A stretch of 55,391 bases of DNA, counting the filler, from Basidioascus undulatus (lineage: Eukaryota), in NCBI GenBank assembly GCA_000826855.1. It is 4 parts of 4 records of this genome, joined end to end, with 100 filler letters (N's around TTAATTAATTAA, not from the genome) between each part and the next. Parts side by side here need not be neighbours in the genome. Positions count along the whole stretch, not along the records: positions 13,904 to 27,690 come from JTLS01000787.1; 3 more parts are not named here. The stretch is one strand, 5' to 3'. Shown here piece by piece: positions 4,595-48,700 of this stretch (its first letter is position 1; each line of letters begins with the position of its first letter). The translations under genes and the position numbers were made by a program. The notes beneath the pieces were generated by a model. It saw nothing but the letters and a program-made list of their open reading frames with translations, ran no database searches and was not told where the DNA came from.

Positions 4595-7862
<3,268 letters not shown>

Positions 7863-13025: not shown

Positions 13026-13709
13026 TCAGTCCGACTCCCCATCCGCGTCGATCAGGTGCGCGTAGTCCTCGTACGACCCGAACGTCGGCAGCTTGGCGCG
13101 CTTCTTCTTTTTCTCCTTCTCCCCGCCGCGCTTGCGCTTCCCGCCCACCGCCTCCTCCTCCTCCTCCTCCTCGCCCACGGGCAGGAGGTCGTCGTCCTCC
13201 TCGTCAAAGACGGGGAGCTCGTCATCATCCTCGTCCTCGTCCTCGATGCGACCCGCGCCGTCGGACTCGTCCTCCTCCTCGGCAGTGGCAGAGGCGGTGT
13301 CCTCGTCGGACGAGGACGCCATCTCCGCGGGGTCCAGGTCCGACCCGGAATCTTCCATGAGGTCCGCCTCGTCCTCCTGCCCCGGCATGGACGCTTGCAT
13401 AGCCTGCACACCATTCCCAATCCCAACCCGTCAGTGTCCAGCTCACCACCCTTCCCCCTGCAGCAAAAAAAGCAAGCGCACCTTCCAGATCTCGTCCTCG
13501 TCCATATCGCTCGCGTCCTCGTCCTCCTCATCTTCATCCACCGCCCCGCCCTTTTCATCCTCGCTCGACGCGCCGGCGTCCGCCTCCGGCTCCGCCTCGC
13601 TCACGACGTCCTCGTCGTCGGAAGCGCCCGTGCCCTTGCGCTTCCGGATCTTGTCCGCCTTATCCTGCTGCCTGCGCAGCTTTTGGGAGAAGAACTTGTG
13701 GAAGAAGAG
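13026..13709 (-). CDS. MAK21: Ribosome biogenesis protein Mak21/Noc1 (CBF family), C-terminal two exons
   Basis: LFFHKFFSQK...MDEDEIWK|AMQASMP..., a long acidic tract, then KRKR...KKKKRAKLPTFGSYEDYAHLIDADGESD*. FFHKFF, EDEIWKAM and LPTFxSYEDYA are characteristic of the Mak21/Noc1 tail. Confidence 0.85.
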
Positions 13710-13803
13710 CTGTACCAACGAGTCTCGTTAGCGACCGAAGACGAGCGGCGATGGAAGAGTGTCTAGGATTCAGGGGAAGGGAAGGTGGGGGAAAGGGAAG
13801 GTG

Positions 13804-13903
13804 NNNNNNNNNNNNNNNNNNNNNNNNNNNNNNNNNNNNNNNNNNNNTTAATTAATTAANNNNNNNNNNNNNNNNNNNNNNNNNNNNNNNNNNNNNNNNN
13901 NNN
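13804..13903. other. Artificial contig linker N44-TTAATTAATTAA-N44
   Basis: Exactly 100 nt; the palindromic 12-mer gives stops in all six frames; identical to the other two gaps. Confidence 0.98.
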
Positions 13904-14734
13904 CCCCCCGGGGCGGCTTATCTGGAGCCTATATTCTAAGTCCAAGTTCCCACATCCAGTTCGACAGTGTTCTATTTAGAAGATCCACTGCGAGTGCTAG
14001 GACTACCGCTGCGTCCTCCCGGCCCTGCAGCATGTTGTAAGATGAGGTGCGTTTTGTTACGACTATATTAAAAACTCAAATATTCTATGATGTCCATTTC
14101 AAATGCACCAACATTTTCTTTTGAGGACGAATAGACCAATTCTGCGGGTTGGGTTTATCTCGACACAGAGAAGTGCGAGCCTATGTGAGCAGACTGTACT
14201 TCCCCAGTGGCTCGTACCTGAACAAGCATCTGGCCTACTATTTATAAAAAAGAACAATTCCCCAAACGTTCACTCGTTTGCGTACTAAAAATCACTCACA
14301 AGTTCCGATTCAACCGACCTTGGTAGGATTCGAAGGCACGACCGGCTGCGTTCCCGGCGGGAGTGACAAGGTCGGGTGACGGCTCCGCAAACGCAAGCAA
14401 ACGTCCGGTAGGGAATTTATCCTCGGCCTCTTTATGCGCAGGTGCTGGTCTGCAAATGGGACTACATAAAATCATGTGAAAATGGTGCATAGTGCTTTTG
14501 TATTGTGGAACTATTACATTGCCAGCAAGAGGTTGCGGAGATCTTTGGCCGACGGCGAAGGTTCAGGCCGGGGCCAAAAGTGTCAAAAAGCTGGGCGGAT
14601 CGGGTCGGACCTGATCTTTCCCGAGGTTGCTGCATGCGCCCTTCTCGCCACGATCTTCTCTTGTGACTCGTCCCCACTCTTCCTCTTCCTTTTCCTAGTC
14701 CCTACCGTCGCCACTCCCGCCTCTGGTATCCGCC

Positions 14735-16454
14735 ATGTCTGCTGAGAACCCCACCATCGTCGGCTCTACCTCGGGCTCTGGCACCCCCGCCGTCTCCCGC
14801 ACCAACGGCGGTGGCCGCGACGGCAACCTCGGCACTTTCGGTGTCAAGACTGGTGAGCCGGCGACTTTATACGGTATTGGGGAACCAGTATACTGAAGTG
14901 TGGTTTCCATAGGCCTTGCGCAGATGCTCAAGGTGTGTGGTTGTGGCGGGGTTGCTCCTGATAAGAAGACTGATCCAGGGCTTCTCGCGTTGTGGACGCC
15001 TTAGGGCGGTGTGATTGTACGTCCTGATTCCTGTCTCATCAATCTGGAATGATGGTTTGACATGGTTCCATCTTCAGATGGACGTGTATGTACACCCTCA
15101 TCGTCACTTCCCTTCTTCATAGCTAAAGTCGCCGCCCTCACTCCAGCGTCAACGCCGAGCAGGCTCGCATCGCTGAGGAGGCCGGTGCCTGCGCCGTCAT
15201 GGCGCTCGAGCGTGTGCCCGCCGACATCCGTGTCGAGGGCGGTGTTTCCCGCATGTCGGACCCCAAGATGATCAAGGAGATCATTGCGGCCGTGACCAGT
15301 ACGTCTCATCGTCTTCCTTCCTAGGTGCGTGAGACGGAAGGGGCAAGGGGCTGATCGAGAGCTCGCTTCCGATAGTCCCCGTCATGGCAAAGGTCCGCAT
15401 TGGCCACTTTGTCGAGGCGCAGATCCTCCAGGAGGTCGGCGTCGATTACATCGACGAGTCCGAGGTCCTCACTCCTGCGGACGAGCAGCACCACAGTGCG
15501 TTCTATGTCCATGAGATGCTGCCAGCGTTCAGCAGCTCATCCTGTATCGCGTTCCAGTCAACAAGCAGATCTTCAAGGTCCCCTTCGTCTGCGGCTGCAA
15601 GAACCTGGGTGAGGCGCTCCGGCGCATCTCGGAGGGTGCGGCCATGATCCGCACCAAGGGCGAGGCTGGCACTGGCAATGTTGTCGAGGTGCGTTCTGCT
15701 TCCCTCACTTCCTCTTCTTGAAATACGCACTTGACTCACCGTCCTCTCGCTCTACAGGCTGTCCGCCACCAGCGCCAGGTCCAGGCCGACATCCGCCGTG
15801 CCGCCTCCATGTCCGACGAGGAGCTGTACGCCTTCGCCAAGGACCTGCAGGCGCCTTACCACCTCCTCAAGGAGACTGCTCGTCTGAAGCGCCTGCCTGT
15901 CGTTTCTTTCGCTGTAAGCATTCCCTGCATTTCGCTGGCGTCTGAATTCATCTAACATGCCTCGTCTCTTTCTCAGGCTGGTCAGTCGACGTCCGCATTC
16001 CTGCATTCATGATTCTTCCCATGCTTACCTCACTCCGTACTTACAGGCGGTGTTGCGACCCCCGCGGACGCGGCGTTGATGATGCAGCTCGGCTGCGACG
16101 GTGTCTTCGTCGGCTCTGGCATCTTCAAGGTGCGCTCGCAGGCCACTCATCGCTCGAGCCACACTCCTCCGCTCACCTTTGTCCCATTTTGCGCTACAAC
16201 AGTCCGGCGACCCCCTGAAGCGCGCGCGCGCGATCGTCCAGGCCGTTACGCACTACCAGAACCCCAAGGTTCTCGCGGAGATCTCGGAGGACCTTGGCGA
16301 GGTGCGTTTTGCGATTTCGCACCCATCAGCTTGCTGGGTCGTGCAGAAGCCACACCGCTAACTCGAGACGAATGGATGCTTGGGATAGGCTATGGTCGGC
16401 CTGAACGTCGACAAGAACCTGAAGGGCGGCCAGTTCGCTCAGCGCGGGTGGTAG
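14735..16454 (+). CDS. SNZ1: Pyridoxal 5'-phosphate synthase subunit (SNZ1/PDX1), with several micro-exons
   Basis: [134 protein letters not shown] (TAG 16452-16454). Confidence 0.97.
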
Positions 16455-16728
16455 ATCGGCATCGGGCGTAGAAGACAGCGGGAGGGTGGGGAGATCTGGA
16501 CGAGGGCTTGATTCGCTTTTATGTTTTCATTTTGGCATTGATTCTAAATCTTGACTCGAGACCAGATTGACGGCAGCGGACTGTGGCGTTCGGGTGCAAG
16601 GCTCGCGGTACAAACATCCGTCTGCGAGGTTGCACGCCGAATGTTGTCTAGCGATGTTGCATGTTTTCAATGGGTATCGCAGAGAAGGCCAGTGGAACAG
16701 GAAGGGACAACTGCCGCGCGCTTCAGAT

Positions 16729-18214
16729 TCAAGCAGCGCTGCCCTCCAACGCCCTCCAGAACGCACTGCTTTCCCTCCCCTCCTTAACCCCAACGATCTC
16801 CCACTCGTCCCTGCCCTCACCCTTCGCACCAACAAACGCCTCAGCCCGCCTGATTCCCGCCTTCTTCTCGTCTGCGCTCGCCTGCGAGCCGATCCACACC
16901 CAGACTGCACGCGACAACGGCGAGTCCAGGATGAACACGTCGGACGCTTGAAGGGAGGAACGAGCCGCAGGTACGGGGGCGAATAGGATGTTGGAGGACA
17001 CAGCGGGGACTGTGAGGCGGTAGAGCGCGCTCGGGGCGGACGGAGTTTCGGCGCGGGGAGCGGTGCGCGGAGCAACGGTTGAGGGCTGGATTGAGGAAGG
17101 TGAGCCGGCAAGCGCCCTGTAGAACTTGCCCGAGCCTGAGCCTTCGTCTGCAGAAGGAGCGAATTCAGTTAAGTTCTGTAACACGAAGTAAAGTGACGCG
17201 CGAACCGAGAACCTCGACCTTCCCCACCCCGCCCTTACGAGCAACGATCTCCCCCGCAATCTCCCCAGCCTTCACGCGCTCCTTCCCGGTGCTTTCGCGT
17301 CCGCACCACACCCAGGCGCCCTGGCCGTCGTCACCCTCGGTCCCGCGGTCCAGGACGAACGCATCGCCCGAGTTCAGGCTCGCGCAGTCGAGGGGGACTT
17401 CCCAGACTGCCAGTGCGCCGGCGGTGGAGGACCGCACGTGGAAGAGCCGCGCCGGCTGCGGCGGCGGGGAGGTCGGGTGCGTGAAGCCGGAGGGCGCTCC
17501 GCCGAGCAGGTAGATTGGTGCGTTCGGGAACAGGGAAAGGAAGGATCGCGATTCGTGCGATTGGAGCTGGCGGTGCTGGACTGGGAGACCGTGCAGATCT
17601 GGAGGGCATCGCGATAATGTTAGTAGGTCAGAGTGTACTTGCAGACTGAGGGGCTTGAAAGGCATACAGTCGTCCAGCTCAACTGTGAATTAGAAGGGAT
17701 TTAGCGAACCCAAGGAGACCTTTGTGAATGCAAATTCAACATACCGGTCTTGTACGCAGCGACACCCCGCTCATCCTGCGTCGAGAGGCTTCCCAGCCAC
17801 AAGTGAAGGTCATAGAGGAGCTTGTCGCTGCCGGCTTCCTTATAAGTCTGCAGAAGAAATCTCTGCCTCTTCAGATACGTCTTTTGTAGACATGAAGGGC
17901 TCTACTCACATGAAGGACGAGGTAGCTGTCGCCTTCGAACCATTTCCCGTACTCGCGCTCGGGCCACGGCTCAACCTCGAAGTCTACGATCCTCCAAACC
18001 TGTACACCGGGTTTGGTCCCTCCGCCCTTCCAGGCAGACTCGGTGTGCGCTGCTGCGAGACGAGATTGAATCTCGGCCTAAGGCAAAAAAAAAATGGGTA
18101 AGCAAGAACGCTACGCTGTAGAGATGTGAGGATGTGAGAACGTACGCTGGACCCGAGGAGGGCGATGTTAGTTGCCTCGATGGGCAGTTGGGACTGGTGA
18201 ACTAGGCCTGACAT
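16729..18214 (-). CDS. Three-domain gelsolin/severin/fragmin-like actin-severing protein
   Basis: IEATNIALLGSS|AEI...AWKGGGTKPGVQVWRIVDFEVEPWPEREYGKWFEGDSYLVLH|TYK...YDLHLWLGSLSTQDERGVAAYKT|VELDD|YLHGLPVQHRQ...SLNSGDAFVLD...WVWCG...SDVFILD...VWVWIGSQAS...KEGRESSAFWRAL. Confidence 0.92.
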
Positions 18215-18633
18215 TTATGATGGGTTTATCAAAGTGTGGTTACGGTAGGGTGGACGGACCGCGGTGAAGGTCGAAGGGGGAAAGGGGGAAAAGTCGATGT
18301 CGTGGCACTGCGCTGCGCAGCTCAGGTGATGCAAGAGAGCTGGTCTGTGCCAAATAATGCGTCTGTGGGCAGGGAGCTTCCATCATGCCTTCCTAGTGCT
18401 GATGAAAAAGTGCATATGTACAAACAGTAGACATTGTGTTTGCTGGGCAGGGTAGTAGGATCGATGCGACTGCAACAGCCCAGTGGACGGGAAGGGATAC
18501 CACAAGTTCTTGTGCAAACCAACCGTTCCCTGTCTTCTATCTATCGATGATCAGAGGTTTCAATGAATGTTTCCATTTGACTTAATTTTTTCACTTCCAC
18601 CGAGGCTGCGCTCCCGGAGGCAGTCAACGGTGA

Positions 18634-18672
18634 GTGACCGCATCGTAAAGTTGGCGGAAGGGTGACCGCATC
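18634..18672 (+). promoter_or_regulatory. 11-bp direct repeat GTGACCGCATC x2 in the divergent gelsolin/6PGDH-like intergenic region
   Basis: Exact copies at 18634-18644 and 18662-18672, about 110-150 nt upstream of the ATG at 18783. A regulatory role is inferred only. Confidence 0.35.
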
Positions 18673-18782
18673 CGTTTGAGTTGCTGCGAGAGCCTGCCTG
18701 CGCTCTACAACATCAACAGCCAGCGTCGTGTTCGCTACACCAAAAGATCCCAGTCAATCTACTCTGAATATTCCCCTCGAAG

Positions 18783-20944
18783 ATGTCTACCGCCGCGCAG
18801 GGTCAAGCGGATGTCGGGGTTGTGGGACTGGGCAGTATGGGCGGTGCGTCGTTTTATCAAGTCTGGACTGCGAAGTACGAAAGAAACGGGTGCTCATTTT
18901 GGGGAAACCTCAACAGGTTGCATGAGCCTCCTGTTCGCAGAGCACGGAAGCCATGTCGTTGGAGTCGACGTTGACCCTCGCCGGCTCAATAAAATCAAGA
19001 AGACGGCGGAGGAGCTCAAGCTGCCCATTCAGGCGTACGACTCGCTCGAGCCGTTCGCGGCGGCTTTCAAAGCCGGCCGGCCGCGTACCATTATCCTCTC
19101 TCTTCCGCACGACGGGCCCATCGACGCCGTTCTCAAGACACTCCTCCCCGTGCTCGACCGCGACGACATCGTCATCGACGGCGCGAACGAGTGGTACGAG
19201 GAGACCGAGCGCCGCCAGAAGTGGTGCATGAAGGAGAAGGGGGTCCTCCTCATCGGCATGGGCGTCAGCGGCGGCTACCAGTCCGCCCGTCGCGGGCCTA
19301 GCATGAGCCCGGGCGGGCCCCGCGACGCATACATGGTCGTCGAGCCGATGCTCAAGAAGTGGGCAGCCAAGGATCGCCACGGCAACCCCTGCGTTGCATA
19401 CATCGGCCCCGGAGGTGAGTCGAGCTTTTTTGGTGAAGACAGAGAATGTCGCATGAAGAAATGCTTCACAGGATCTGGCCACTATGTCAAGACCATCCAC
19501 AATGGTATCGAGCAGGTGCGTCATCCTATTCCAGTCCATGACCTTTCACTAACATTTCAACTGGGTTAGGGAATCATGGGCGTCCTCGCCGAGGCGTATG
19601 ACTTGCTACGCCACACCCTCGGGTTCAAGAACGACGAGGTCGGCGACATCTTCGCCGGCTGGAACGCGAAAGGCGAGCTTCGCGGCAACTTCCTCGTCAA
19701 GCTCGGTTCGGAGATTGTTAAGTTCAAGAAGGGGGATGGGCACGAGAACCCCGAGGGTATCATCGACGACATCGACGACAAGGTTCGTCTCAAACATCAC
19801 CTCCGAAGCTCCATTCTAGCTAGACTAAGACTACCGTACTTCTCGCTGCAAAGGTTGTGCAAGACGTCGATGAGGAGGAGGGCACTGGCGTCTGGACTTT
19901 CCGCGTGCGTGCAGTCGTCTAATAACCGTGAAACAACCTATCAGCGTAACCTCACAGCGGCTTTGCAGGAAATCGCCTACCGCCACGTCGCCGGAAACAC
20001 CATCACCGGGTCGCATCAGATGCGCATCATCTCCGCGAACAAGGGCGAGCGTCGCAAGGTGGCAGCGAACCTCAGCCTGCCCCCTCGCTCGAAGGCCCCG
20101 TCGGGATTCGACCGGATCAAGTTTGTCGAGACGCTGCGGCTGGCGGTGTACGGGGGAACTCTCGCTTCGTTCATCCAGGGCATGGGTGTACGTACATCTC
20201 AACTCGCCTTGGGATATTCAGCCCCGTTGCTGACCAGAATCTTCAGATCATCGCCCGCGCCTCTGCGCAGCAGAAGTGGGACGTCTCCCTCGCGACATGC
20301 CTCAACATCTGGCGTGCGGGTTGCATCATCCAGAGCGACTACATCGCGGACTTGCTGATGCCCATCGTCGAGAAGGACCCAGGCTGCAATAACCTCTTGC
20401 TCGCGCCCGATGTCGCGAGGGAGCTGAGCAAAACGTTCGAGTCGCTCGAGCAAGTGGTCAGGCTTGCATTGGACAGGCGAGCGATCATTCCCTCTATCTC
20501 GAGCACCCTGGAGTACGTCAAGCAAGTGGGCTCGACCGAACTTCCAACGAGTGCGCACCGTCTTATCCTTTTGCTTCTGCCCTTGGACTCAAGCTGACCT
20601 GGATCACAATTTTTCAGACTTGTACGTTCGGCGTTCACAGTCCTTTCATGTGCGCGGACTGACCAAACGCTTCGTTATGCTTGTAGTATGGAAGCCCAGC
20701 TCGACGCTGTAAGCACTTACTCTTCAAAGCTGACAGATGGCTCACATGGCTCACATACACCGCAACGCACGCGTATCTTCAGTTCGGGTAAGCAGGTTCT
20801 CTCCAGATTCCTTCCAGCTCTTCACGTTCACACCCTTGCCCGGGAAACTTCGAAACACAAAGAGAGCACATGTACGACCTGAAGGCCGAGAAGCGTCCGG
20901 ATCCGGTCAAAGGCCTGTACCATACCGAGTGGCGGCCGGCTTGA
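18783..20944 (+). CDS. 6-phosphogluconate dehydrogenase-family protein, divergent paralog
   Basis: VGVVGLGSMGG Rossmann motif, DIVIDGAN, GMGVSGG..ARRGPSMSPGG, GSGHYVKTIHNGIEQG, EGTGVWT, IWRAGCIIQS, LPTNFMEAQLDAFGEHMYD...YHTEWRPA* (TGA 20942-20944). Confidence 0.92.
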
Positions 20945-22066
20945 GAGTGACGAGAGGTAGACCTGGGGAAAGGATGGGGTTGCTGTGGTGGGTGAAAAAA
21001 ACGAAGTCGTGCTGGGGGAAGAAGGGTTTCGGCGGGAGCTCTCTTGATGTTGCGCGAATAAAGTTATATTCATTTCTGCCGGATGGTTTGTATGTGCCCC
21101 TGTTGCTGCAATGGTACTTTCGACTGATTGCCTTACAGAAAAAGTCAGCGAGAGAATGATTCCAGACCATCGTCTGGCATTGCCTTTCAGACCCTCTGAT
21201 TATTCTGAGTACACCCAGCGATTTTGTGACGTCCACTGTTCACTGAAGAGCAGGGTGTTTCGCTAGTTAACCCGTAGCACGGCGTGAGGAGCTTGAATAC
21301 GCTCCGTGTAAGTCTGAAAGCAGGAACTACGTTCATATTCCGCTTTCCACTTCACAACTGACTTTGCAGTGAACATTTTTGATTTACAGCTATTTTTAGG
21401 ATGTATAATCTAAGGGTGTCCAACCGGGTGTCGGCCTCAGGTAATGCTACGGACGGGGAAACGTGCTCGGAAACAAGGCCCTCGGACTGTGTGAGCGCTC
21501 GTCACTTCAACGAGGTTACAAGGGCACTCAGTATCAAGCTAGCTCAACATATCCCACAATTTTTTTTTGAAACTGCAACTCTGACCTTCCCGAAATGGGC
21601 GTCTTCTGGATGAGGAGCGTAAGGTCGGAGTGGCCGCTGCACTGCGCATCCCATTTTCTCCAACTTGCTGAGCAGAACCGCAGTCACACGCCCCTACAAG
21701 CTCCCTAGAATTGTTGCTTCGAAAGCGGGGGACAGCTTCTAAAGTTGAACCTGCCAATGAAAGGGCTACTGCCTTTCGTTCTGACGCGCCCATACAATAC
21801 TAGGACTGGTTGGAAGCCGCAGGTTGGTCCATAACAGAGAGAGACTGGGAGACGTGACAGGACTCTGAAGTGAACCTCTCAATCATTCAGAAAACCGGTA
21901 GAGCGCCAGAGCACCGTGGACGGCGGCGAGAGCGGCGGCGCAGATCCTGGGTCCGCTGGCCAAAATTGCACCTTGATCTTTCGCCGTCATCACCGCCTCT
22001 TATCACTCGTCTTTCCCCATAGCATCGAAGCCATTTTACAAATACCTCTGCGGTCCTGTTTTCATT

Positions 22067-23430
22067 ATGGCGGCTGCTATTACTTTCCGACCCTCCCCGC
22101 TCCTTGCGCTCCCGCTCGAGCTCGTGGAGCACATCTTCTCTGAGCTGCCTGACCTTTCGTCCAAGCTCAGCCTGACACATACCTGCTCTTAAGTTTCGCC
22201 GCTCGTTTTCGGACCCCTCGTACTGGGCTGCGACCTGCTTCGCGGCCGGCATCGGATGCCCGAAGACGCCTGCTTGGGCTACGCCGCGTGAGTCCGAGGC
22301 GCTCCGGAGCTGGCTTGCGCGCGCAGGAGTGGAGAAACTCGACGGGCTGGGGCTTATGGGACGGAATGAGCGACTGTCCTGGTTGGAATGTGCGAAGGCG
22401 TTGGGAGCTGACGGGAGTGCGAGGTCTGCGACAGGTGGTCGAGGGTGTGGCCGCCTTTGGCAGACGTGGACGGAGACGTCGGTGCGTCAGTGCACCATAC
22501 TCTCTCATGCAGCTTGACGAGGTATTGAAGCTGAATTCACTCTTCAGGCGGCGATGCCGTTTGACCCTCTGGCCCCATCCCGCTCTCTCCCTCCGAGATC
22601 GCATCCCTGCCCGTTCCGCTCATCCTCCACCCCGCACTGCTCGACTGTCTCCGCCTCTCACTCTCGGGTCCTCTAGAGAACGCCCTTGCAGATAAGGCGG
22701 TTTCCAACGGACGCTGCGAGACGTGCGGTGAGCTGGTCGAGCTGACCGACGACAAGCCACGGCGCTTCAGCACCTGGCCGCCCACGCGCAACGCGCTGCT
22801 GTACCGGCACGAGAGCATCGCTCTCGCTCTCGCTACCTGGCCGCCCGTCAAGCGCCTGGGCGTCCGGGTAGTTGCAGATGAATCTGATGAAACTGTCTTC
22901 GTCGACGGAGACGAGGGCGGGGAGGTGCGCTGGGTGTGGAACGAGCGGGGGGTGACTGTGTCGGATGTGACGAAGGACATCACCGAATTGTACCTCCCCA
23001 CACTTCCCATAGCTTTACAGATAGGACAGACTCTATTGTAGCGCCTCTCAACGTCTATCGGTCGCGCAGCAGCAAGCGCGGGTACGGCCTGATTTACCAG
23101 AACGTCGCCCATCGCGCCTGCTGGGAACTCCCCGACGACGCTAGAGATTCCTAATACCATGAGTACGCCTTCATATTTGCCCTCATTTGATTAGAAGGTC
23201 TTGACGCAACTTGTATACGAAAAGGCTGTTTTTCGAGCCTGAGCTATCTGAGAACTACGATGCAGTCCTCAGCCAAGCCACACGCGGTGGGCGCTCTGTG
23301 CATGCCCCAGCGACGACTGGTATGTCCGTACTTCTTCCTACTGATCTTGCTCAGGTAAAAATACTGAGTGGAGCTCACAGCCCCGACGGCTTCTCCTACC
23401 GGACGAGGGCGAGGACTTACGTGCAGTGAC
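22067..23430 (+). pseudogene. F-box protein gene with early frameshift/stop
   Basis: MAAAITFRPSPLLALPLELVEHIFSELPDLSSKLSLTHTCS* (TAA 22190-22192). Removing one T gives ...TCSKFRRSFSDPSYWAATCFAAGIG.... Downstream coding-like segments (e.g. LALATWPPVKRLGV) are fragmented. 3' end approximate. Confidence 0.7.
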
Positions 23431-23929
23431 TGACCTGCGAGTTCAGGGACAATCACTAACCGTGGTCAGGGTCATACATGCCGAGATGCGTGTCTTAATA
23501 TTCCCTTGCTTGTAAATTATTGCAGACGTGCTCGTTCACTGCATATCTGAGGGGCGGTCGCTGGAGGCATCCGGCACATTGGTTCGAAATTAAAGGACGA
23601 CACAGCGGAAACCGAGATGAAACGCCCCGAAGTTACGTCATTTTGCGAACCAACTGAAGCCAGACCGCTCAAGGACCGCTCGAAGGGGCAGGGTCGATCT
23701 TCGAGCTTGCTCTCCCATCTTTCCCTCTCGTCCAACGCTCTTGTTGTACACAGCACATACTCATATTTACGAATAATCAGGCGCCTTGTGCACAGTAATT
23801 CCTGATCAGAAATTACAGAGCTGCATACGACCTGTGAGCTCTACATTAGCGTACGCGCCTTGTCCTCGCACTCACACACTACCTACAGAACCACATCTTT
23901 CACAGGCTTTGTGCGCGCCTGAAGCTCCC

Positions 23930-26900
23930 ATGTACACGCCCCTCCTGCGACGCGGCGCGCTACTGCAGGGAAATGCAGCAGCATCAAGGCTAGCTCTCCG
24001 CCCTCTTCCTCCGCCGCCCCGGCGGGCTCTCACAGCCGCGGCCGGCGCTCCACCTGACGCTGCGGAGCCTGCAGACCCGGCTGTGTCTGCCCAGGAGCCT
24101 CAGGTGGGTACAGGTGATGGCAAGATCTGAGCTGGATCAGCAAGGGCATGTGTACGTAGGCGCTGTTCTGATAGGCCATGGGCGCGGGGGAGCAGGCGAG
24201 TCCGCTGGGTGGGGAAGGGGTGTTCGATAAGGAGGTGCTGGTTTTCCTGGAATCTGTGCGTACTCTTTCCTCAATATATCCTCAAACTTGATTATGAGCT
24301 CAATTTAGTTGATGTGGAACGGTACAGATCTTCCCCATCCGCCTAGGGACCTTTGACCCGCGACATCTCATCGCTTCCCTCCGCCAAGACGCCGTCCTCT
24401 CATCGATCAGATCTCGTCTGGCCTCAGCGTCCGACGGGTCCTGGGTCGTCCGCTCGGTCGAGCCACGCATGAAGGACGGCGGCGCGTTTGTGCGCATCGC
24501 GTACCGTTCTAGCCCTGGCGCGGCGGAGGGTCAAGCGGAAGGGGAGGAGGCGCGCGTGGAGAAGGTCGTCAAGGCCGCGGTGGAGAAGGACTCGGGGAAA
24601 TTGACGTGGAGCGGGGTGGGGGCGGCCAAGGCGTTCTTGGTGAAGGGGAAGCCGTGGATGGAGGTGCGTGGATTGGTGTGAGTAATGGATCCTTGCGCTG
24701 GGGCTGATATGGAAATGGGTTGGCACAGGACCTGTACCGCTTCCCTTCGCCCCGGATACGAGTCGAGTTCGACGGCCCGGACGTGCCTCAACAACCCCTC
24801 TACTCCCTGTTCCGAGTTCCGTCCTTCCCCTCTCTCCATGCCTTTCCACATCCTCACGCTCATCTACCCTCCCTCGCCCGCAGCCATACGGCCACATCGC
24901 CGACCTGCACCCGCCCTCCCCCGTCTCGAAGGACCTCCCGCGTGCCACCACGGTCGCCTTCAACCGCCTGCGCTCCGCGACCGCCGCGCGCAACTGCCTC
25001 GACGGGCACGTTCTCCGTCTGCCAGACGGCGCCGGCCAGACGCGCCTGGGCGTCTTCTACGAGCGCCAGATCGCGCGACACGCAGTGCGCGACTGGCTCA
25101 CCTCCCACCCACGGCTCGTCCTCCCCGTCATCGTCTTCCTCCTCGGTAGCATCAGCTACGCGATCTTCAATCCCGTCCGGGAGTGGTTCGTCGAGAGCAA
25201 GCTGCTAGGGCGGTTCGATTTGGATAGTGCGTTTTTTGCTCGGGTGCGAATCCTTGTCGGGCCAAGGGGAAAGAGAAGGAGAAATGATGCTGATTGGAGG
25301 GGAGCGTTCAGAGAACTCTACAGTCAGCTGGCTCCGCACCCGCACGCTTTCGCTCTTCTCCTCGAAGGACGACGGTGATGCTGGAGAAATATGCAGCGGC
25401 GTCTGGCGCGACCGTAAGGAGGCAGTCGAGCAGGTGGAGGCGAGGCTGAAAGACTACCCTTGTGCGTTGGGATCATTTGGGTTACGAGCGCCTTGACTGA
25501 AAGGGATGCCCCAGCTACGTTCATCACGATCACCGGACCGCGGGGATCGGGCAAGTCGGCGCTGCTGCAGCGGGCCACGAGGGACCGGTGCGTGAAGATT
25601 ATGATGTGAGCGGAGAGAAAGCTGAGGCTAACGAGACCGTCATGATCAGGCGGACGCTCACGATCGATTGTGCGGAGGTGTGCAAGGCCTCTTCGGACGC
25701 CGGGCTCGTTTCTGCTTTGGCTGAGCAGACGGGGTACTGGTACGTGCTGCGGGATCCGTTCACGCCTTCGTCGACAAGTAGAATCCATGATGATGGTCGC
25801 TGAATCTTCGCCCGCTGTTCAGGCCCGTATTCGGCTTCCTCGCCTCCGCCTCAAACCTGCTGGACCTCGCTGCGGTCGGTGTGATGGGCCAAAAAGGCAG
25901 GCACTCTCCTTCTCAGCGCCTTTCCGCTTCGAAACCCAGCTGACCCCCGTTCTTCTCTGCGACAAACGCAGCCGGCTTTGCCACGCCCATCGAGGACCAG
26001 CTCAAGCAAGTCCTGGAAGTGACTGCGCACGCCCTGACGTCCGTTTCCTCCTCGACTCTTCACGACCGCGAGTGCGCCTTCTCCACCGCTGCGGCAGACG
26101 CGCAGGCCGAGCTGGACCGGGCGTCGTTCATCGAGCGCGCGCGCCGCAACGGCGTGTGGCACGACGGGCGGCTGGATTGCATTGCGGGCAACGGGATCAT
26201 GAGCGAGCTCGGGCTGGGGCTGGAGAGCGACGAGGAGGTCCGCAGCGGCCGCGCGAACGAGGACGACGTCCCCACCCAGGCGGACGCGGCTGTCGTGGGG
26301 GTCGTCGTCCCTACTGAGGCGGGGGCGGGAAAGGCCGAGGAGAAGAAGGAGAGGAGGACTTTCGATAAGGAGCGGGAGGCGGTCGAGGCACTGCCGGTTG
26401 TCGTGCGTCTTTTCTCTCCCTGCTTTCTTCATTTAGGCTGGAGCGGGACCGAGACGCTTATCACTGTGGGTACGCAATAGGTCATCAAGGGCTTTGAAGC
26501 CAAGGGCGCGAAGAAGGAGGTCCTGTTCAACGTCCTCGCCGAGTGGGCTGCGGGGCTTGTGTCCAACCGGGTACGTTGTGTGCGCGCCCTTCCTTCTTTC
26601 ATGGAGCTTGTCGAGACTGACCGTGATGGGGATTGTGCCAGGCCGCACATGTCATCATTGTATCGGACAACACTTCCGCCAACAAGCGTTTGGCTCGGGG
26701 TGCGTGACGAGTTTGTAGCCTCGGATGGGCGCTACTGCTGTGGCTGCCTGCGTTGCTAACATGGCTTGTCTGGGCCACAGCGCTGCCGAACAAGCCTCTC
26801 GCCGCGATCGGCCTCGCGGTACGTCTTCTGGCGCTCGATTTCTTACCTATTTCGGGGCCGAGCTGAGTCTCACACACACGATGCATAGGACGCCGATCGC

Positions 26901-27649
26901 GATAACTCGTTTCACTACATCGCGACGAAGCTCGGCAGCCTCGACCCGCCCGTCGAGCTGCGCAACGAAGACCGCACGGAGGTGGAGCGCCTGGGTGGGC
27001 GGTTGACGGACTTGGAAGACGTATGTTGCAGCTCGCGCTCGCGCTTCAAAAAGAAGAAGTCGCTAACATAGCACGTTGTGCGTCGGACACCGGTCAGCTT
27101 ATTCATAAAGTCCGCAGCGGCTCGTCGGTGCGGGAGGCGGTTGAAGAGCTCATGTGCGTCGCTGCGTGCTTGTCATTCCGAAGGAGAGGGCGTCTGACAG
27201 CCGGTCGGTCCACAGCGCCCAGAACGTCATCGAGCTCCGGCAAGCTGCGTTCGGCGAGGACATGGACGCTGCCAAGGAGCTGCCTTGGTTGCGCGAGCAG
27301 GTCTGGTTGATGATCAAGGCGCTTGCAACAAACGACAAGGTCTGTATTCGGCGCATAAACCAAACCCACGTTGCAGTGAGAGTTTTTGACAATTCGCTGC
27401 GCGGTGTCCAGCTCAAGTATGCGGACGTTCTCGCCGACTGGCCGTTCAAGGGCAAGGAGAGTGCGCTGCACGCGCTCGAGCACCACGATTTGATCATGAT
27501 CTTTCACAAGAACGGTGGGCGGATTTCCAGGCAGCTGAATTAATCCTCATGGTAATCTGACGTTTGGATTCATCGCGACACAGGGCGCCCCTCCCTCATC
27601 CACCCTGGCAAGCCCATCTACCGCTCTGCCTTCGAGCGTCTCCTGCAAG
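23930..27649 (+). CDS. YME2: Mitochondrial escape protein 2 (Yme2/Rna12), 3' end truncated by contig end
   Basis: Presequence MYTPLLRRGALL; VEPRMKDGGAFV, AFLVKGKPWME|DLYRFPS..RVEFDGPDV..LYSLFR|PYG, AFNRLRSATAARNCLDG, WLTSHPRLVLP TM segment, P-loop-like GPRGSGKS, QTGYW|PVF, LGGRLTDLE, GRPSLIHPGKPIYRSAFERL. Confidence 0.93.
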
Positions 27650-27673
27650 GTCCGTCGTCTTCCTACCTCCCCT

Positions 27674-27690
27674 AGATCGGAAGAGCACAC
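27674..27690 (+). other. Illumina adapter read-through at contig end
   Basis: AGATCGGAAGAGCACAC is the start of the standard Illumina TruSeq adapter and directly abuts the gap. Confidence 0.95.
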
Positions 27691-27790
27691 NNNNNNNNNN
27701 NNNNNNNNNNNNNNNNNNNNNNNNNNNNNNNNNNTTAATTAATTAANNNNNNNNNNNNNNNNNNNNNNNNNNNNNNNNNNNNNNNNNNNN
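27691..27790. other. Artificial contig linker N44-TTAATTAATTAA-N44
   Basis: Same 100-nt structure as the other gaps. Confidence 0.98.
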
Positions 27791-29588
27791 AGGGACGACG
27801 GAGAATCTGCTGCACAAGACGCCCGAGCTCCACCGCGGCCAACTGGGCGCGTTCCTCGCCGCGCCCGCGCACGGCCCGATCCTCGGCGCGTTCGTCGACC
27901 GCTTCCGCCTCATGGGCGTCCGCGTCGACGACGCGCTCAGGGTCTTCCTCGCCTCGCTCCACCTCGGCACGGACGCGGCCAGCGCAGAGCGCCTCCTCCA
28001 CGGCTTCGCGGACCGCTACTATGCCGCAAACGCCGCGCTCCTCCCGTTCGACCGCGAGCTCACGGACCGCTTGATCTTTGCTATCATGGAGCTCAACGAC
28101 GCGCTGCATTCGGGCCTCGAGGCGGGGAACCCAGGCGCGGCGAATCTGTTCTCCTTCCCCAACCAGGCGATCTCGGCGGACGACTTTATCGACGCTTTCC
28201 GTGTTCGCGATCCTGAGGTTCGTGGTCTTGCTCAAAATTGCCGTTCAGGATTGGGAGGCGAGGGGCTGACGTGATGTTCTGCTTGATCCCCGACCTGCAG
28301 CACAAGGTCCCGCATGATCAGCTCGAGCGTATCTACGCCAGCGTGCGCCGTGAGCGGATCGAGCAGGCGCGCGAGCGCGACTCGTCCATCCCTGAGCGGC
28401 TCGTCACGCTCAAGCCACACCGTCTGCCATCCCGCCTCGTCTACGGCGTGCCCTCCGAGCCCATCACCGTCACCCTCCCTGCGCCCGACCCGGACTTTTC
28501 GATCAAGCTTGTGGGTGAGTACATGAGCGTTTCGAGGGGCTCTCCACTCCAGGAGCGCACCGCTGACGCTGGTGATCCGCGCAGGCCACGACATGCAGTT
28601 CGACCCGCCCGTGCTTCGCTTCAGCGACTCCGCCTCTGCATCGTTCCGTGTTACTGGGACGGCGCTCGGCTCGCGTGCGATCGTTTTCGTGCGCCTTGGT
28701 GCGAACGCACCCCTCTATGCTTCGCTGCCGCCCAGCAAGGGCTTCATGGTTGAGCGCTCGTTCATGGTGAGTAGCGCAGCCGTGTCGCCGACAGGCAGGC
28801 CGAATCCTGATACCAGTCCTTGCCTCCAGCGCCACACGTTCCAGCTCAGCTTCTTGAACCACTTGAACGTCAAGCGCAAATACCTGTTCAGTGTCGACGA
28901 TGCCGAGACTAGGAACGACTGGGTGCGTTCTGACTTTCGAGCACGATCCTATCAATGCAATTCTGGACTTGGACTAATGGGCCAGTTCGCGCACAGGTCG
29001 GCACGCTCAAGGCGAGCATTGAGCAATGTCAGCGTGCGGCGGCGCAGACATCCGATCGCTCTCCGCTTGTGACCGCGAAAGTGCAGCGCGCAGCGCAAGT
29101 GGTCGGGCTACAAGTCCTGCGCGACGCGCTCATCAAGGAGGACGGCGCCGCGGCCGGAACCAACGGGCGGGGCTCGACGCCGATATCCCGCGAGGGGCGA
29201 CCGGAGACCGGAGACCCCAGCGGCAGGACGCCGTCACGGCACCAGCGCTCGCAGTCCGTTAGCCGGCTCTTCCCCGTTGGAGGGAGGGGCAACGGATCGG
29301 ACACGTCGCAGAAGACGCGGAGCGGCAAGAGCGTCCCTGCGCCTACGCAGGAGGACATGCAGGGGTGCCGCGGAGGGGGCGACATCGGTCAGTCTTATTG
29401 CTGTGTTCTTCGTTTTTGTGTGGGGAATGTGGGACTGACCGAAAAGATTGCATGGCGCGCTCGTAGTCTTGCTCGCCCAGCAGAACTCGCTAGTTCCCCT
29501 CGTCTTGTCCTTCCTGCAAGCGGCGAAGCCCGAAGCGCGGTACGGCTACCAGGCGCCGCCGGAGCCCGAAGTGGGTATGGCTCTCTGA
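27791..29588 (+). CDS. Sec7-domain protein with downstream PH-like region, 5' part missing
   Basis: LGAFLAAP..ILGAFVDRFRLMGVRVDDALRVFLASLHL...ERLLHGFADRYYAAN...LIFAIMELNDALH...ISADDFI...LERIYASVRRERI (Sec7 helices); then RHTFQLSFLNHLNVKRKYLFSVDDAETRNDW; spliced end QQNSLVPLVLSFLQ...GMAL* (TGA 29586-29588). Confidence 0.8.
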
Positions 29589-36376: not shown

Positions 36377-38048
36377 TCAGTTGATGACCCGCGAGAGCTT
36401 CTGGACTTGGTTGAGGAGCAGGTCGCCCTGCTTGACGACGAGCTCGTACTGCGCGTTGCGCTTGTCGGGCCGGTTCGTCTCGATCACGCCGTTCACCTTG
36501 TCAATCACGCAGTTCAGGCGGCCGGTGGAGATAAGGCGGGAGAGGTCGCTGTTGGCAAGGAGATGAACGGTCAGCCATCGTGAAGTTGGAGTGAAGAAAG
36601 AAGGCGGAGAAAGAACGCACTGGTCGAGGTACTCCTCCGACACGCCGAACGCGCGCGTCATGCTGTCCATCGTGAAGGAGCGGTACGACTCGAGGAGCTG
36701 GCCGTACGCGCGGATGCGCATCTCGCGCGTGTAGTAGCGCGCGTGCTGGGAGAGCAGGCGGGACGGTCGCAGGTACTCGTCCTCCACGGCGGCTGATGGA
36801 AGTGAAAGAAGGCGGGAAGGTCAGGCTGTGAGGGCGGATGGCAGGGACGGAGAAGAGGATAGAGATGAACCGAGAGAACGGAAGAACTTCGCATAGTCGC
36901 AGCTGTACAGGGAGTTGGCAAAGTCGCGGAGGAGCGGCGCTTGGGGGAGGACTTGGAGGATTTCGGGCGAGGCGATGATCTGTCCATGCATCCCACGTTC
37001 AGAGCGGGTCTTGAGCACCTGCTGCAAGGAGTCGCCTTACCTTCTTCTTCAGGTCGACACGGTCCAATGCAAAGACGCCAGCGAGGACGGTGAGGCGGAT
37101 GAACTCTTCGTAAGGCATGAGCTCGGTGCTCGTGAACGTCGAGAGCGCGTCGAGGAAGTTCGTCGCGGCCGACTTGAAGTCGCGCACGGCGAGGGCGTGC
37201 ACGCCGGAGTACACCTTGAGCCGGTTCCGCCGGTCCCAGTCGCCGCCCTCGTCCACCAGACTGCCGTCCCGCCAAGCGGGCTGTCAGTTTCAAGCCAGAG
37301 AACGATGGGTCCGGTGCGGAGGCAGGACGAGGGGCAGGGTAGAGGAAATGTGAACATACGCTTTGGCGGCGGCGATGTTGTCTACGATGAGCTTGTTGTC
37401 TTGGAAGAAAAGGCCGATGCGGATGAGCGCGAGCGTGATGTCGATGCGTGCTCCGAGCCCAGGCGTCTTCTCTATCGCCAGCTTGTGCGCCTCGACCGCC
37501 TTGTCCTGCAGACCCCGCCATCAGTGAGCTCACGCCGGGATTGTCTGCAACCCGAAGATGTAGGAAGAATAAAAGCCGAGCTGCACACTCACCTTCTCGC
37601 CGATCAGCGCATAGTATGTCGCCCGTGCCCGCAGCGCCTCACTCAGCTCCGACTCGCCCAAGTTCTCCTCCGCCTCCTTCACCCGCGCATCCAGCTTCTC
37701 CAGCTCCTCTGCGTTCGCCTTCCGCAGCCGCTCCAGCAGCGCCCCCGAATCGGGCAGCAGCGTGGGTGGCAGTGATGCGAGGTAAGGCGCCGTCTCTGAT
37801 AGGCAAACAGCTCAGCACAAGAGCAGAAGGTTAAAGTTCCTTCGCGGCGCACCATCCTTCTCGATCATTTCCCGCAAGCGTGTGCGCGCGTCGTCGTGGA
37901 GGTTGGTCAGGGCGGGGTGGGCGAGGATGAATGCGGCTTTGGGGACTTCGAGGTTCGGGATCGGCAGGAGGACGTCCTCGTCGCCGCCGACAGCCACGGG
38001 TGCGCCGGGCTTTTGCTGGGACTTGTCGGTAGTGCGTATTCCGGCCAT
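36377..38048 (-). CDS. RPN7: 26S proteasome lid subunit Rpn7
   Basis: [138 protein letters not shown]. Confidence 0.97.
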
Positions 38049-45788: not shown

Positions 45789-48700
45789 ATGTCGGACAAC
45801 CACGAGAAGGCCGCGGGCGACGCCCCGGTCACGCCCCCCGCCGCCGAAAACGAGAAGATTGCCGTCCCCGAGGCTGAGAAGAAGAAGCGCGAGTACAAGG
45901 TGTGTGGTAAGGGCGGGACAGCGTGCGAGGCTGGCATCGATCTCTGTTCAACATCTCGCTCATCGCGAGCGTCTTCTTTTCATTCTAGGACTTCGGTGAG
46001 GAGAAGGAGAAGGCCACCCATGCCCTGGTCGACATGTCCCAGGTCAGATTTTTGCATTCCCCCGTCTGTGGTCCTGCAGCGCAGCGTATTCACTGTCATC
46101 GCACCGGAATCCAGATCGACCTCAAGGCGGAGGACCTCTACGACAAGGACAAGGTCGACCTCGAGACCGTCGTCGTCGAGGACGTCTTCAAGCTCCTCCA
46201 GTGCACGGAGGAGGGCCTGACTGCCGCTGAGGTCCAGCGTCGGTTCGAGATTTTCGGTCCCAACAAGCTTGAGCACGAGGAGCAGAACGCGTTCCTGCAG
46301 GTTCGTTGCTTCATTTTCCACGCATGGCCGGGCTCGGGCTGTGGGTTGACGGGCTTTTTGCATCGTTATCAGTTCCTCTCGTTCATGTGGAACCCGCTCT
46401 CCTGGGTCATGGAGGGTGCCGCCATCGTCGCCATCGGTACGTCTTCTCGCGGAGTCTTCTCTTCGTCTTCTGAGTGCTGACACATCTCATCGTTTGCCTC
46501 AGCTCTTTCCAACGGGTTCGGCAAGCCTCCTGACTGGCAGGACTTCGTCGGTATCGTCGCTCTTCTGTTCATCAACGCTGGTATCGGCTTCTACGAGGAG
46601 CGCTCCGCTGGCAACGCCGTCTCCGCTCTCATGGACTCGCTCGCGCCCAAGGCCAAGGTTCGCCGTGACGGTGCCTGGAACGAGGTTGAGGCTTCCGAGC
46701 TCGTTCCTGGTGACATGGTCGCGTTCAAGAGTGGGCCTACACTGTTAGTACGCTGCGCCGTCGCACAAGCTAACGTGGATGCCTTCGCTCCCTAGTTGGT
46801 GACATCGTCCCTGCCGACTGCCGTCTCACTGAGGCCATCAACGTTTCGATCGACCAGGCCGCCCTCACCGGCGAGTCGCTCCCTGCGTCCAAGTCGAACG
46901 GCGACCAGTGCTTCTCCGGCTCCATCTGCAAGCAGGGTGAGGCTGAGGGTGTCGTTATCGCCACCGGTGGCAACAGTACGCTTCTTTCACTGTCTCTACG
47001 TAGTGTGCCATATTTTGACCTCATCTTGGCGCCTTTTCCAGCCTTCTTCGGTCGTGCGGCTACTCTCGTTGGCCAGGCCGGCGACGAGGACACCACCGGT
47101 CACCTCCAGAAGGTCCTCGCCAAGATCGGTCTCTTCTGTCTCGTCTCGATTGGTCTCTTCGTTCTACGTACGTTGCCTGCCATTCTCCATACGTCATGAT
47201 ACCGGTATTGATGCTTCTCATCACCTCCAGTCGAGATCCTCGTCCTCTACGCCGCGTACCGCTACCAGTACCGCCGTGGTCTCGACAACATCCTCGTGCT
47301 CTTGATCGGTGGTATTCCCATCGCCATGCCCACGTACGTCGCGTCGACGGGTCCTGCGCTACTTCAAATTGCTCACGTTCCATCTTGCTGCAGTGTCCTG
47401 TCCGTCACACTCGCCGTCGGTGCTCAGCAGCTCGCCAAGCACAAGGCCATCGTCACCCGTATCACTGCCATTGAGGAGCTCGCGGGTGTCACCATCCTTT
47501 GCTCGGACAAGGTACGTTCTTTCTCCCGACGTTACGTTCAAATTTTGGTGCTGACGTTCCTCCCCCCACAGACCGGCACGCTCACGACCAACAAGCTCAC
47601 GATCGACAAGGAGCTTGTCAAGACCTACGGTCCCTTCAACGCCGAGGAGGTCATGCTCCTCGCCGCCTACGCTTCCCGTACCGAGAACATGGACGCCATC
47701 GACGGCTGTGTCGTCGGCTCCGTCGCTCCCGGCAAGGCTCGTGAGGGCATCAAGCTCCTCGACTTCAAGCCCTTCGACCCCGTCTCTAAGCGTACCGAGA
47801 TCACCTACCGCGAGGAGTCCACCGGCAAGCTGAAGCGTGTCACCAAGGGTATGACTGGTATCATCGTGCGTTACTATTCCTTCAAGCGCTTGTTGGTCGC
47901 CCATGTTGCTGACCTTCCCACCTCTTCCACCTCCAGATCGAGCTTTGCTCGCGCAACAAGACCGAGGAGCAGGAGAACGCGCTCGAGGGCGACGTCGAGG
48001 AGTTCGCCAACCGTGGTCTGCGTGCGCTCGCCGTCGCGTACGAGGAGGTCGCCGGCGATGACCCCGAGGCTGAGGGCAACGGCTTCGAGCTCATCGGTCT
48101 CCTCGCTATCTTCGACCCGCCCCGTTCCGACACCAAGCAGACGATCGACGACGCGCAGGCCCTCGGCGTCCGCGTTAAGATGGTTACCGGTGACCAGCTC
48201 GCTATCGCCAAGGAGACCGGTCGTCGTCTCGGCCTCGGCGACCACATGTACGCCTCCAAGGTGCTCAAGGAGGGTCCTCCGCCCGGCGGCGCCCACCTTT
48301 CGCTCGACGAGATGATCATGGACGCCGACGGTTTCGCTGGTGTCTTCCCGGAGCACAAGTTCGAGATTGTCAAGCGTATCCAGGCTCAGGGTGAGTGTCT
48401 TGAAGCCGTTCAGCGGCGTTGTTCCTGGACAACATACTGACTTGCTGATTCCTTCGTCCTCAGGCCACCTTTGCGCGATGACCGGTGACGGCGCGAACGA
48501 CGCTCCTGCTCTTGCCCGTGCCAACGTCGGTATCGCTGTCGAGGGTGCCACCGACGCTGCCCGTGGCGCCGCCGACATCGTCCTCACCGAGCCCGGTCTC
48601 TCCACCATCGTCCACGCCATCCGCGGCTCTCGTATCATCTTCCAGCGTATGCGCAACTACTCGATCTACGCTTGCGCCGTTACGATCCGCATCGTCGTTG

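Follow-up and report, generated by a model that had tools for sequence, protein, structure and literature searches.

A conserved paralog family with the 6PGDH fold and altered phosphate sites: candidate NAD+-preferring dehydrogenases of non-phosphorylated hydroxy-acids in fungi

What does an enzyme do that has the fold and the chemistry of 6-phosphogluconate dehydrogenase (6PGDH) but in which phosphate-binding residues have been replaced? The question is raised by a gene at positions 18783-20944 (+ strand) of a 55,391-nt window from Basidioascus undulatus. The window is the whole stretch of DNA analyzed, four parts of four records joined together that need not be neighbors in the genome, with positions 13,904-27,690 coming from JTLS01000787.1. 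On the basis of sequence comparisons, we favor with moderate confidence a reading in which the gene codes for a functional enzyme belonging to a conserved long-chain 6PGDH-fold paralog family, fungal and reaching into Amoebozoa, that would prefer NAD+, would act on a non-phosphorylated hydroxy-acid and would be accessory to Gnd1.

Sequence reading and placement of the splice sites gave an intact 6PGDH-fold gene, with the ATG at 18783 and the TGA at 20942-20944. The splice model, which is based on homology, has 11 exons and 10 GT..AG introns of 54-75 nt each, for a coding sequence of 1503 nt and a protein of 500 aa. The exon-bearing open reading frames (ORFs) matched Pfam NAD_binding_2 once and 6PGD twice (E 7.2e-21 and 4.9e-23), and tblastn with two relatives and one canonical Gnd1 as queries matched only this locus in the 55 kb window. 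The gene is laid out as follows.

18783-20944 (+): whole coding sequence of the 6PGDH-fold paralog (gene model; Pfam on exon-bearing ORFs; sole tblastn locus in the window)
18783-18843 (+): exon 1, aa 1-21, with the dinucleotide-fold motif G-L-G-S-M-G at 18825-18842
18917-19414 (+): exon 2, aa 21-187, coenzyme domain (Pfam NAD_binding_2, E 1.3e-24)
18967-18975 (+): D38-V39-D40 in exon 2, replacing N32-R33-T34
19099-19110 (+): SLPH in exon 2, with the family-invariant H85
19186-19191 (+): N111-E112 in exon 2
19267-19281 (+): S138-G-G-Y141-Q142 in exon 2
19472-19515 (+): exon 3, aa 187-201, with the catalytic motif K193-T-I-H196-N197-G-I-E200-Q201 at 19489-19515, in which Q201 replaces Y191
19570-19782 (+): exon 4, aa 202-272, start of the helical domain (Pfam 6PGD match on ORF 19570-20355)
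19854-19904 (+): exon 5, aa 273-289, with the active-site lid VVQDVDEEEGTGVW at 19854-19895
19969-20187 (+): exon 6, aa 290-362, with the family-specific H295 (19984-19986), and H305 plus the retained R308 (= R287) at 20014-20025
20247-20550 (+): exon 7, aa 363-464, second half of the helical domain (Pfam 6PGD, E 4.9e-23, ORF 19950-20594)
20618-20621 (+): exon 8, predicted 4-nt micro-exon ACTT between cag and gtacgt, completing N464 and starting F465
20687-20708 (+): exon 9, aa 465-472, tail helix M-E-A-Q-L470-D-A, in which L470 replaces R446
20783-20787 (+): exon 10, predicted 5-nt micro-exon TTCGG between cag and gtaagc, giving F473 and the first two bases of G474
20863-20944 (+): exon 11, aa 474-500 and stop, with H476 (= H452) kept and the family-typical C-terminal Y-H-T-E-W-R-P-A at 20918-20941

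The frame needs both predicted micro-exons (4 and 5 nt), which yield the family-conserved residues F465, F473 and G474, each found in 112 of 121 family sequences. These micro-exons, which gene predictors easily miss, are flanked by introns of 65-75 nt toward the 3' end of the gene. In the alignment, 30 of the 120 listed homolog models are incomplete at the N- or C-terminus or lack catalytic residues, and missed micro-exons may be part of the cause; intron-free ascomycete orthologs exist as well, for instance in loci L019, L021 and L044. The codon of Q201 is the final complete one in exon 3, exon 5 contains the entire lid and L470 is inside exon 9, so that alternative splicing cannot restore the lost Tyr, Lys and Arg.

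The roles of the residues concerned are documented for canonical 6PGDH. One paper on the structure of yeast Gnd1 (PMC1919378) lists 14 residues of the sheep enzyme in contact with 6-phosphogluconate (6PG; Table 2) and describes the substrate-binding residues as identical across the species compared. According to a 2022 review (PMC8900737), N32-R33-T34 bind the 2'-phosphate and set NADP+ specificity, an Asp replacing that Asn hinders the 2'-phosphate, and the 6-phosphate region consists of Y191, K260 and R287, with R446 and H452 supplied by the partner subunit. The review regards K260 and R446 as crucial for 6-phosphate binding, the K260 contact being made partly through the main-chain amide.

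The spliced protein was aligned with E. coli Gnd (K-12 record), whose numbering equals that of the sheep enzyme between 102 and 287, and with 52 canonical fungal Gnd1 sequences. All the motifs quoted in the earlier, sequence-only reading of this gene are present at their places: GVDVD, DGAN (N111), the GVSGG loop (S138-G140), the catalytic motif GHYVKTIHNGIEQG (K193, H196, N197, E200 and Q201), the lid, QMRIIS (R308) and EAQLDAFGEH (L470 and H476). Eleven of the 14 sheep 6PG contacts are kept, namely N111, S138, G139, G140, K193, H196, N197, E200, T283, R308 and H476 (N102, S128, G129, G130, K183, H186, N187, E190, T262, R287 and H452 in canonical numbering), and three (Y191, K260 and R446) are changed. 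In sheep numbering the replacements are N32 to D, R33 to V, T34 to D, Y191 to Q201, K260 to E281 and R446 to L470; in the lid, a five-residue acidic insertion (Q275, D276, D278) stands ahead of E281, with T283 (= T262) kept. The same residue correspondences were obtained when the relative P0002 was compared with the L. lactis 6PGDH (2iz0; phmmer E 1.2e-73).

Judged by these alignments, the fold and the full 6PGDH catalytic set are kept: K183 as general base, E190, the S128/H186/N187 triad, N102 and the SGG loop. E190 and the S128/H186/N187 triad have a role in decarboxylation. The claim that the catalytic chemistry is intact in an intact gene was borne out, the K, E, SGG loop, Asn and His being in place and the frame open across all 11 exons. 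Relative to canonical 6PGDH (EC 1.1.1.44), the catalytic and carboxylate-end residues are present, and the NADP 2'-phosphate triad and the complete 6-phosphate site are not. The claimed changes at both phosphate sites are confirmed: N32-R33-T34, Y191, K260 and R446 are replaced; R287, T262 and H452 of the 6-phosphate site remain.

The protein has the features of the beta-hydroxyacid dehydrogenase superfamily as given in the review (PMC8900737), with a dinucleotide fold, an all-helical domain, the S-G-G loop and the catalytic Lys and Asn; G-x-G-x-M-G is invariant in the family alignment, which was the one used for a 39-member profile. The long-chain architecture, NAD_binding_2 followed by a duplicated all-helical 6PGD domain and a C-terminal tail, is seen both in the Pfam matches of the window and in an AlphaFold2 model of the relative P0004 (Mrakia), which is 52% identical to the window protein. 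The model has a predicted local distance difference test (pLDDT) score of 92.6, and its best Foldseek matches are 6PGDH structures (template modeling (TM) scores 0.86/0.94, 28-32% identity). Its sole segment below 50 pLDDT is residues 146-150 (G-Y-Q-S-A), directly after the S-G-G loop, where the canonical E-E reads Y-Q. The short-chain NAD+-type 6PGDHs, tetrameric or dimeric (G. oxydans 6XEQ, G. diazotrophicus 6VPB; TIGR00872), have the beta-hydroxyacid dehydrogenase chemistry in common with the paralog but are without the duplicated helical domain; their Foldseek TM to the P0004 model is about 0.5, and relatives score 140-179 bits against the TIGR00872 cut-off of 297.2. The G. diazotrophicus short-chain enzyme carries an Asp-Arg-Asp motif and prefers NAD+, according to the same review (PMC8900737).

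To place the gene among its relatives, we queried with exon 2 and obtained 361 proteins among 728 candidates, including at least 120 homologs with a 6PGD domain and a length of 294-534 aa, the best being 56% identical over the exon. The 120 homologs listed belong to Basidiomycota and Ascomycota, with one amoebozoan record (Planoprotostelium) and one rotifer-labeled record; a second amoebozoan member, Dermamoeba, was an outlier in a later profile search. The family comprises more than 120 clusters at 90% identity. Its alignment holds 121 sequences, and sites were compared between 122 paralogs and 53 canonical sequences (the 52 fungal Gnd1 and E. coli Gnd). Conservation at the key positions is as follows.

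D38: Asp in 115 of 121
Q275 and D276: 118 of 121 each
D278: 105 of 121
E281: 118 of 121
K193, H196, N197 and E200: 120 of 121 each
R308: 120 of 121
H476: 113 of 121

At the position of Y191 the family varies (Q 54, G 27, H 21, N 17), at that of R446 it has L or M in 116 of 122 sequences, and at that of R33 the listed residues are V, P, I and Y, with no Arg among them. These paralog states are absent from the 52 canonical fungal sequences and from E. coli Gnd. Further family-invariant differences from the 53 canonical sequences are A76 to H85, S103 to E112, E131-E132 to Y141-Q142, G274 to H295 and V284 to H305, and the K264 position is variable in the paralogs; both groups show at least 95% identity at 48 positions. 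The markers of the clade (H85, E112, Y141-Q142, the lid Q-D-x-D-x-x-E-G-T, H295, H305, L/M at R446 and the E-W-x-P end) are all present in the window protein. Of the 64 positions with a conservation of 95% or more in the family, it has the family residue at 63 and differs at one, with D86 for G. Such agreement is the mark that purifying selection leaves on a protein with a changed function. By these comparisons the residue changes are clade traits and not decay, and the earlier proposal that the losses were coordinated stands, the states being clade-wide and conserved in the family.

In a FastTree tree of 175 sequences (the 122 paralogs, 52 fungal Gnd1 taken as every second of 104 canonical matches of 470-515 aa, and E. 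coli Gnd), the canonical fungal Gnd1 and E. coli Gnd formed one clade with support 1.0, apart from the 122 paralogs. The window protein lies inside the paralog clade, nearest to Calocera viscosa P0011. The median identity to canonical fungal Gnd1 is 32% for the paralogs and 50% for E. coli Gnd, so that the paralog family is more distant from fungal Gnd1 than the E. coli enzyme is. Within groups, the medians are 46% for the paralogs and 85% for fungal Gnd1; identities of paralogs to canonical enzymes are 27-37%. Canonical NADP+ 6PGDHs (sheep 1PGP/2PGD, yeast Gnd1 2P4Q, L. lactis 2IZ0, E. coli Gnd) share the three-part fold, Pfam domains and catalytic residues with the paralogs, which differ in this low identity, in the D-V-D triad, in Q/G/H/N at Y191, in the acidic insertion with E at K260, in L/M at R446, in Y-Q for E131-E132 and in His for A76, G274 and V284. 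They differ in profile scores as well: all six relatives tested scored 323-376 bits with TIGR00873, below its cut-off of 426.7, against 746-750 bits for the two canonical fungal Gnd1 tested, and all six scored 352-388 bits with NF006765, below its cut-off of 413.

We then searched 1.84 billion representatives with a profile built from 39 family members. Scores were 614-774 bits for full-length members of the family, 452 and 428 for the outlying full-length P0250 and P0252, and about 414 and lower for canonical enzymes. By site states, 23 of the best 150 representatives at 50% identity were of the paralog type and the other 127 were not; of these 127, Y191 is kept in 126 and R446 in 125. Asp at the N32 position occurs in 39 of the 127 long-chain non-paralogs, one of which (P0252) is aberrant. 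The remaining 38 all keep Y191, R287, R446 and H452, 34 of them keep K260, and none has the acidic lid insertion. These NAD+-preferring Asp-type enzymes, of which B. subtilis GntZ is the textbook case, thus share with the paralogs the Asp at N32, mostly the absence of Arg at R33 and the catalytic set, but differ in their phosphate site and lid. The fact that the 38 keep the phosphate site indicates that a switch to NAD is insufficient to explain its loss in the paralogs. Site comparison presents the loss at the 6-phosphate site as a separate trait, specific to the paralog clade. Nor does the window protein fit the NAD+-type 6PGDH (EC 1.1.1.343), in which the Asp goes with an intact 6-phosphate site; here the Asp is present and the phosphate site is altered.

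In the reading that we favor, the substrate would be a carboxylate-bearing hydroxy-acid. Its hydroxyl would be oxidized with a nicotinamide cofactor, and decarboxylation would most likely be the next step. The Asp at N32, the absence of Arg at R33 and the disappearance of the 2'-phosphate triad suggest that the cofactor would be NAD+ and not NADP+. The replacement of Y191, K260 and R446, together with a lid that is acidic and five residues longer and with the new H295 and H305 flanking the retained R287, suggests a substrate other than 6PG. The pocket that formerly took a dianionic phosphate may now be shaped for a distal group that is neutral or has a single charge; the candidates are free aldonic acids and other polyhydroxy acids. 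The lid carboxylates might hydrogen-bond the distal hydroxyls of a free polyol acid; alternatively, they might make the pocket shorter by occupying the old phosphate site next to R308, H305 and H476. The pentose-phosphate flux would run through canonical Gnd1, with the paralog serving an accessory catabolic route.

An accessory role would go with the presence of both genes in one organism. The paralog and canonical GND1 were found together in five named ascomycetes and in the fungal contigs of a metagenome-assembled genome (MAG), G001.

Xylographa trunciseda: paralog P0096, canonical P0182
Thermoascus thermophilus: paralog P0118, canonical P0175
Thermoascus aurantiacus: paralog P0571, canonical P0167
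Thermomyces lanuginosus: paralog P0390, canonical P0163
Thermomyces dupontii: paralog P0391, canonical P0177

In G001, contig C192 carries the paralog and contig C58 a canonical GND1 that has introns and shares 99% identity with a Cadophora protein over the exon used as query; like the five species, this contig set is ascomycete. This MAG is filed under "Deltaproteobacteria" (locus L002 on contig NYXK01000188.1; loci L005-L007 on contigs C192 and C58), and its contigs are fungal, with low coding density and ORFs of the 2EXR domain; fungal contigs in this species-representative MAG are contamination or mis-binning. Rasamsonia emersonii was rejected as a sixth species with both copies, as its cluster members are MTA phosphorylases drawn in by a fused gene model. 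One record has MTA phosphorylase fused to the paralog in an 814-aa model, and MTAP proteins thus fall into the paralog 90% cluster (P0571 of Thermoascus aurantiacus, P0574). An MTA phosphorylase/purine nucleoside phosphorylase gene also stands downstream of the paralog in Eurotiales-like loci (L013 5751-6542, L019 12166-13167, L021 15928-16927).

Gene neighborhoods were explored in metagenomes scanned with the family alignment, which gave 80 loci, 74 of the paralog type and 6 canonical by motif. Flanking ORFs were clustered, and loci were de-duplicated at 85% DNA identity to 26 groups with enough upstream DNA. In 8 of the 26 groups a gene for a PF01261 xylose-isomerase-like TIM-barrel protein lies divergently about 0.3-0.8 kb upstream of the paralog (from ORF end to match start).

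L013; L016/L018; L019/L020; L021; L012/L053; L036; L044/L045/L059; L046: TIM-barrel gene upstream of the match

Among solved structures this neighbor has one clear relative, the dehydratase domain of P. putida QuiC1 (5hmq, E 1.2e-22); its only NCBIfam match is QuiC at 34-71 bits, far under the 1200 cut-off, and its ESM Atlas name is "xylose isomerase-like." A dehydroshikimate-dehydratase-like neighbor widens the candidate substrates beyond a sugar acid, which was the earlier proposal, to other hydroxy-acids, among which a sugar acid may be one option.

This pairing speaks for a different function, a route that oxidizes and dehydrates a cyclic or polyhydroxy acid (quinate- or shikimate-like, or a keto-sugar acid) in two steps and in which the paralog would be the dehydrogenase, the TIM-barrel enzyme would act with it and decarboxylation would be optional. 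A dehydrogenase followed by a TIM-barrel dehydratase is known pathway logic from inositol and quinate catabolism. In the bacterial L-threonate and D-erythronate routes, likewise, LtnD/DenD carry out NAD-linked oxidation of a free sugar acid and are encoded beside the PF01261 isomerase OtnI. The arrangement is alike, a dehydrogenase of the same superfamily beside a xylose-isomerase-like TIM-barrel gene, but LtnD/DenD are short and HIBADH-like and not long-chain 6PGDHs, and the neighbor of the paralog is nearest to a dehydroshikimate dehydratase domain, not to an isomerase. The eight groups fall into two separate gene-tree clades, one beside Penicillium/Thermoascus and one beside Exophiala proteins; all are beside Eurotiomycete proteins, however, so that the pairing is a lead that possibly reflects inherited synteny within Eurotiomycetes. 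The window does not show it, and neither do 18 of the 26 groups, among them loci of other clades with 9-10 kb of upstream DNA; in G001, which is incomplete, the TIM-barrel gene was not matched with the query used. With the function of the neighbor only putative and with E190 and the S128/H186/N187 triad kept in the paralog, we consider the two-step route rather unlikely.

Quite doubtful, too, is a genuine 6PGDH that merely prefers NAD+ and has a catabolic, GntZ-like role, the 6-phosphate being held by R287, T262 and H452 together with the new H295 and H305. R308, T283 and H476 are indeed kept, with two new histidines near R308, Asp at N32 is common among long-chain representatives, and the sources all name the family 6PGDH. 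But the 38 regular Asp-type enzymes without exception retain both Y191 and R446, whereas the paralogs have L/M at R446 almost throughout, a residue that the review calls crucial, like K260 (PMC8900737). A lid that has gained three or four carboxylates should repel a dianionic phosphate, and the relatives are under both curated 6PGDH cut-offs. A decaying or non-catalytic GND1 copy is highly improbable: four canonical motifs are altered and the family evolves faster than Gnd1 by within-group identity, but the frame is intact, catalytic residues are near-invariant, the window protein agrees at nearly all highly conserved positions, and the family's own invariant H85, E112, Y141, Q142, D276, E281 and H295 argue for selection for a new function.

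Several points weigh against an NAD+-preferring enzyme for a non-phosphorylated substrate. The retained R287, T262 and H452 could still bind a distal anionic group, and the partly main-chain contact of K260 makes its replacement by E alone weaker evidence than that of R446 by L. Asn is found at the N32 position in 2 of the 23 paralog-type representatives, P0247 among them; the subgroup of P0038 and P0247 reads Y-N-R-P-E-E at the cofactor motif, keeping Asn-Arg, has a less acidic lid insertion (V-V-Q-D-A-N-S-S-E-G-S-G) and retains L at R446, which suggests that cofactor use may differ within the family. The scores set against the curated cut-offs are those of six relatives, and the five named species with both copies are all ascomycetes, the window being basidiomycete-like. 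Finally, within the 55 kb window the neighbors are housekeeping genes, with no metabolic cluster and no pathway clue.

The genes of the window around the paralog encode a mitochondrial EF-G, a gelsolin-repeat protein, RNA12, Sec7, RPN7, a P-type ATPase, a purine/cytosine permease and an eIF3 subunit; the following were placed.

5839-7344 (+): mitochondrial EF-G
16530-17689 (-): gelsolin-repeat protein
27145-28271 (+): RNA12 and Sec7
36380-36820 (-): RPN7
45989-48437 (+): P-type ATPase
53834-54665 (-): eIF3 subunit

The proteins listed as matches of the EF-G exon come mostly from basidiomycete yeasts and Mucoromycota; identity among them does not exceed 86%, over 56% of the query, which indicates a poorly sampled organism. 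In six locus groups of another clade (L034/L082, L040, L041/L043, L065, L069, L087) a Pex2/Pex12 RING peroxin gene adjoins the paralog, probably by inherited synteny. On a fungal-looking metagenome contig, L021, a TNT domain (tuberculosis necrotizing toxin, NAD+ glycohydrolase; E 1.8e-34) lies at 13684-14316 (-), a few kb from the paralog. A strict degenerate DNA pattern for the lid motif gave three matches and no bacterial member in the genomes of 185,579 species; two were chance matches in zinc-type alcohol dehydrogenases and the third was a fungal contig in the "Deltaproteobacteria" MAG.

Source databases label the family uniformly as 6-phosphogluconate dehydrogenase or hypothetical, and the ESM Atlas gives automatic "6PGDH" names, as had been anticipated of automatic annotation. 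With this uniform label, fungal metabolic reconstructions may count the paralog as a second pentose-phosphate enzyme. We found no paper on the family in the full-text literature, a scope that leaves out supplements and most subscription journals. The 2022 review separates only long- and short-chain 6PGDHs and two tail types, and the words "fungi" and "fungal" occur nowhere in that text (PMC8900737). The family is apparently unstudied, as well as widespread in fungi.

6PGDH is among the best-studied enzymes of central metabolism, and here a paralog family keeps its chemistry and discards both phosphate sites. If the substrate is a free acid, a new reaction would be defined, many annotations would be corrected and a natural example of phosphate-pocket rebuilding would be at hand. 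Tentatively, and going by residues, the new activity could be that of an NAD+-dependent oxidative decarboxylase or 3-dehydrogenase for a free hydroxy-acid on the 6PGDH scaffold, such as gluconate to ribulose or gulonate to xylulose. If this is true, fungi and some Amoebozoa would gain a non-phosphorylative side entry into pentose metabolism, which in Eurotiomycetes would be coupled to an uncharacterized dehydroshikimate-dehydratase-like TIM-barrel enzyme.

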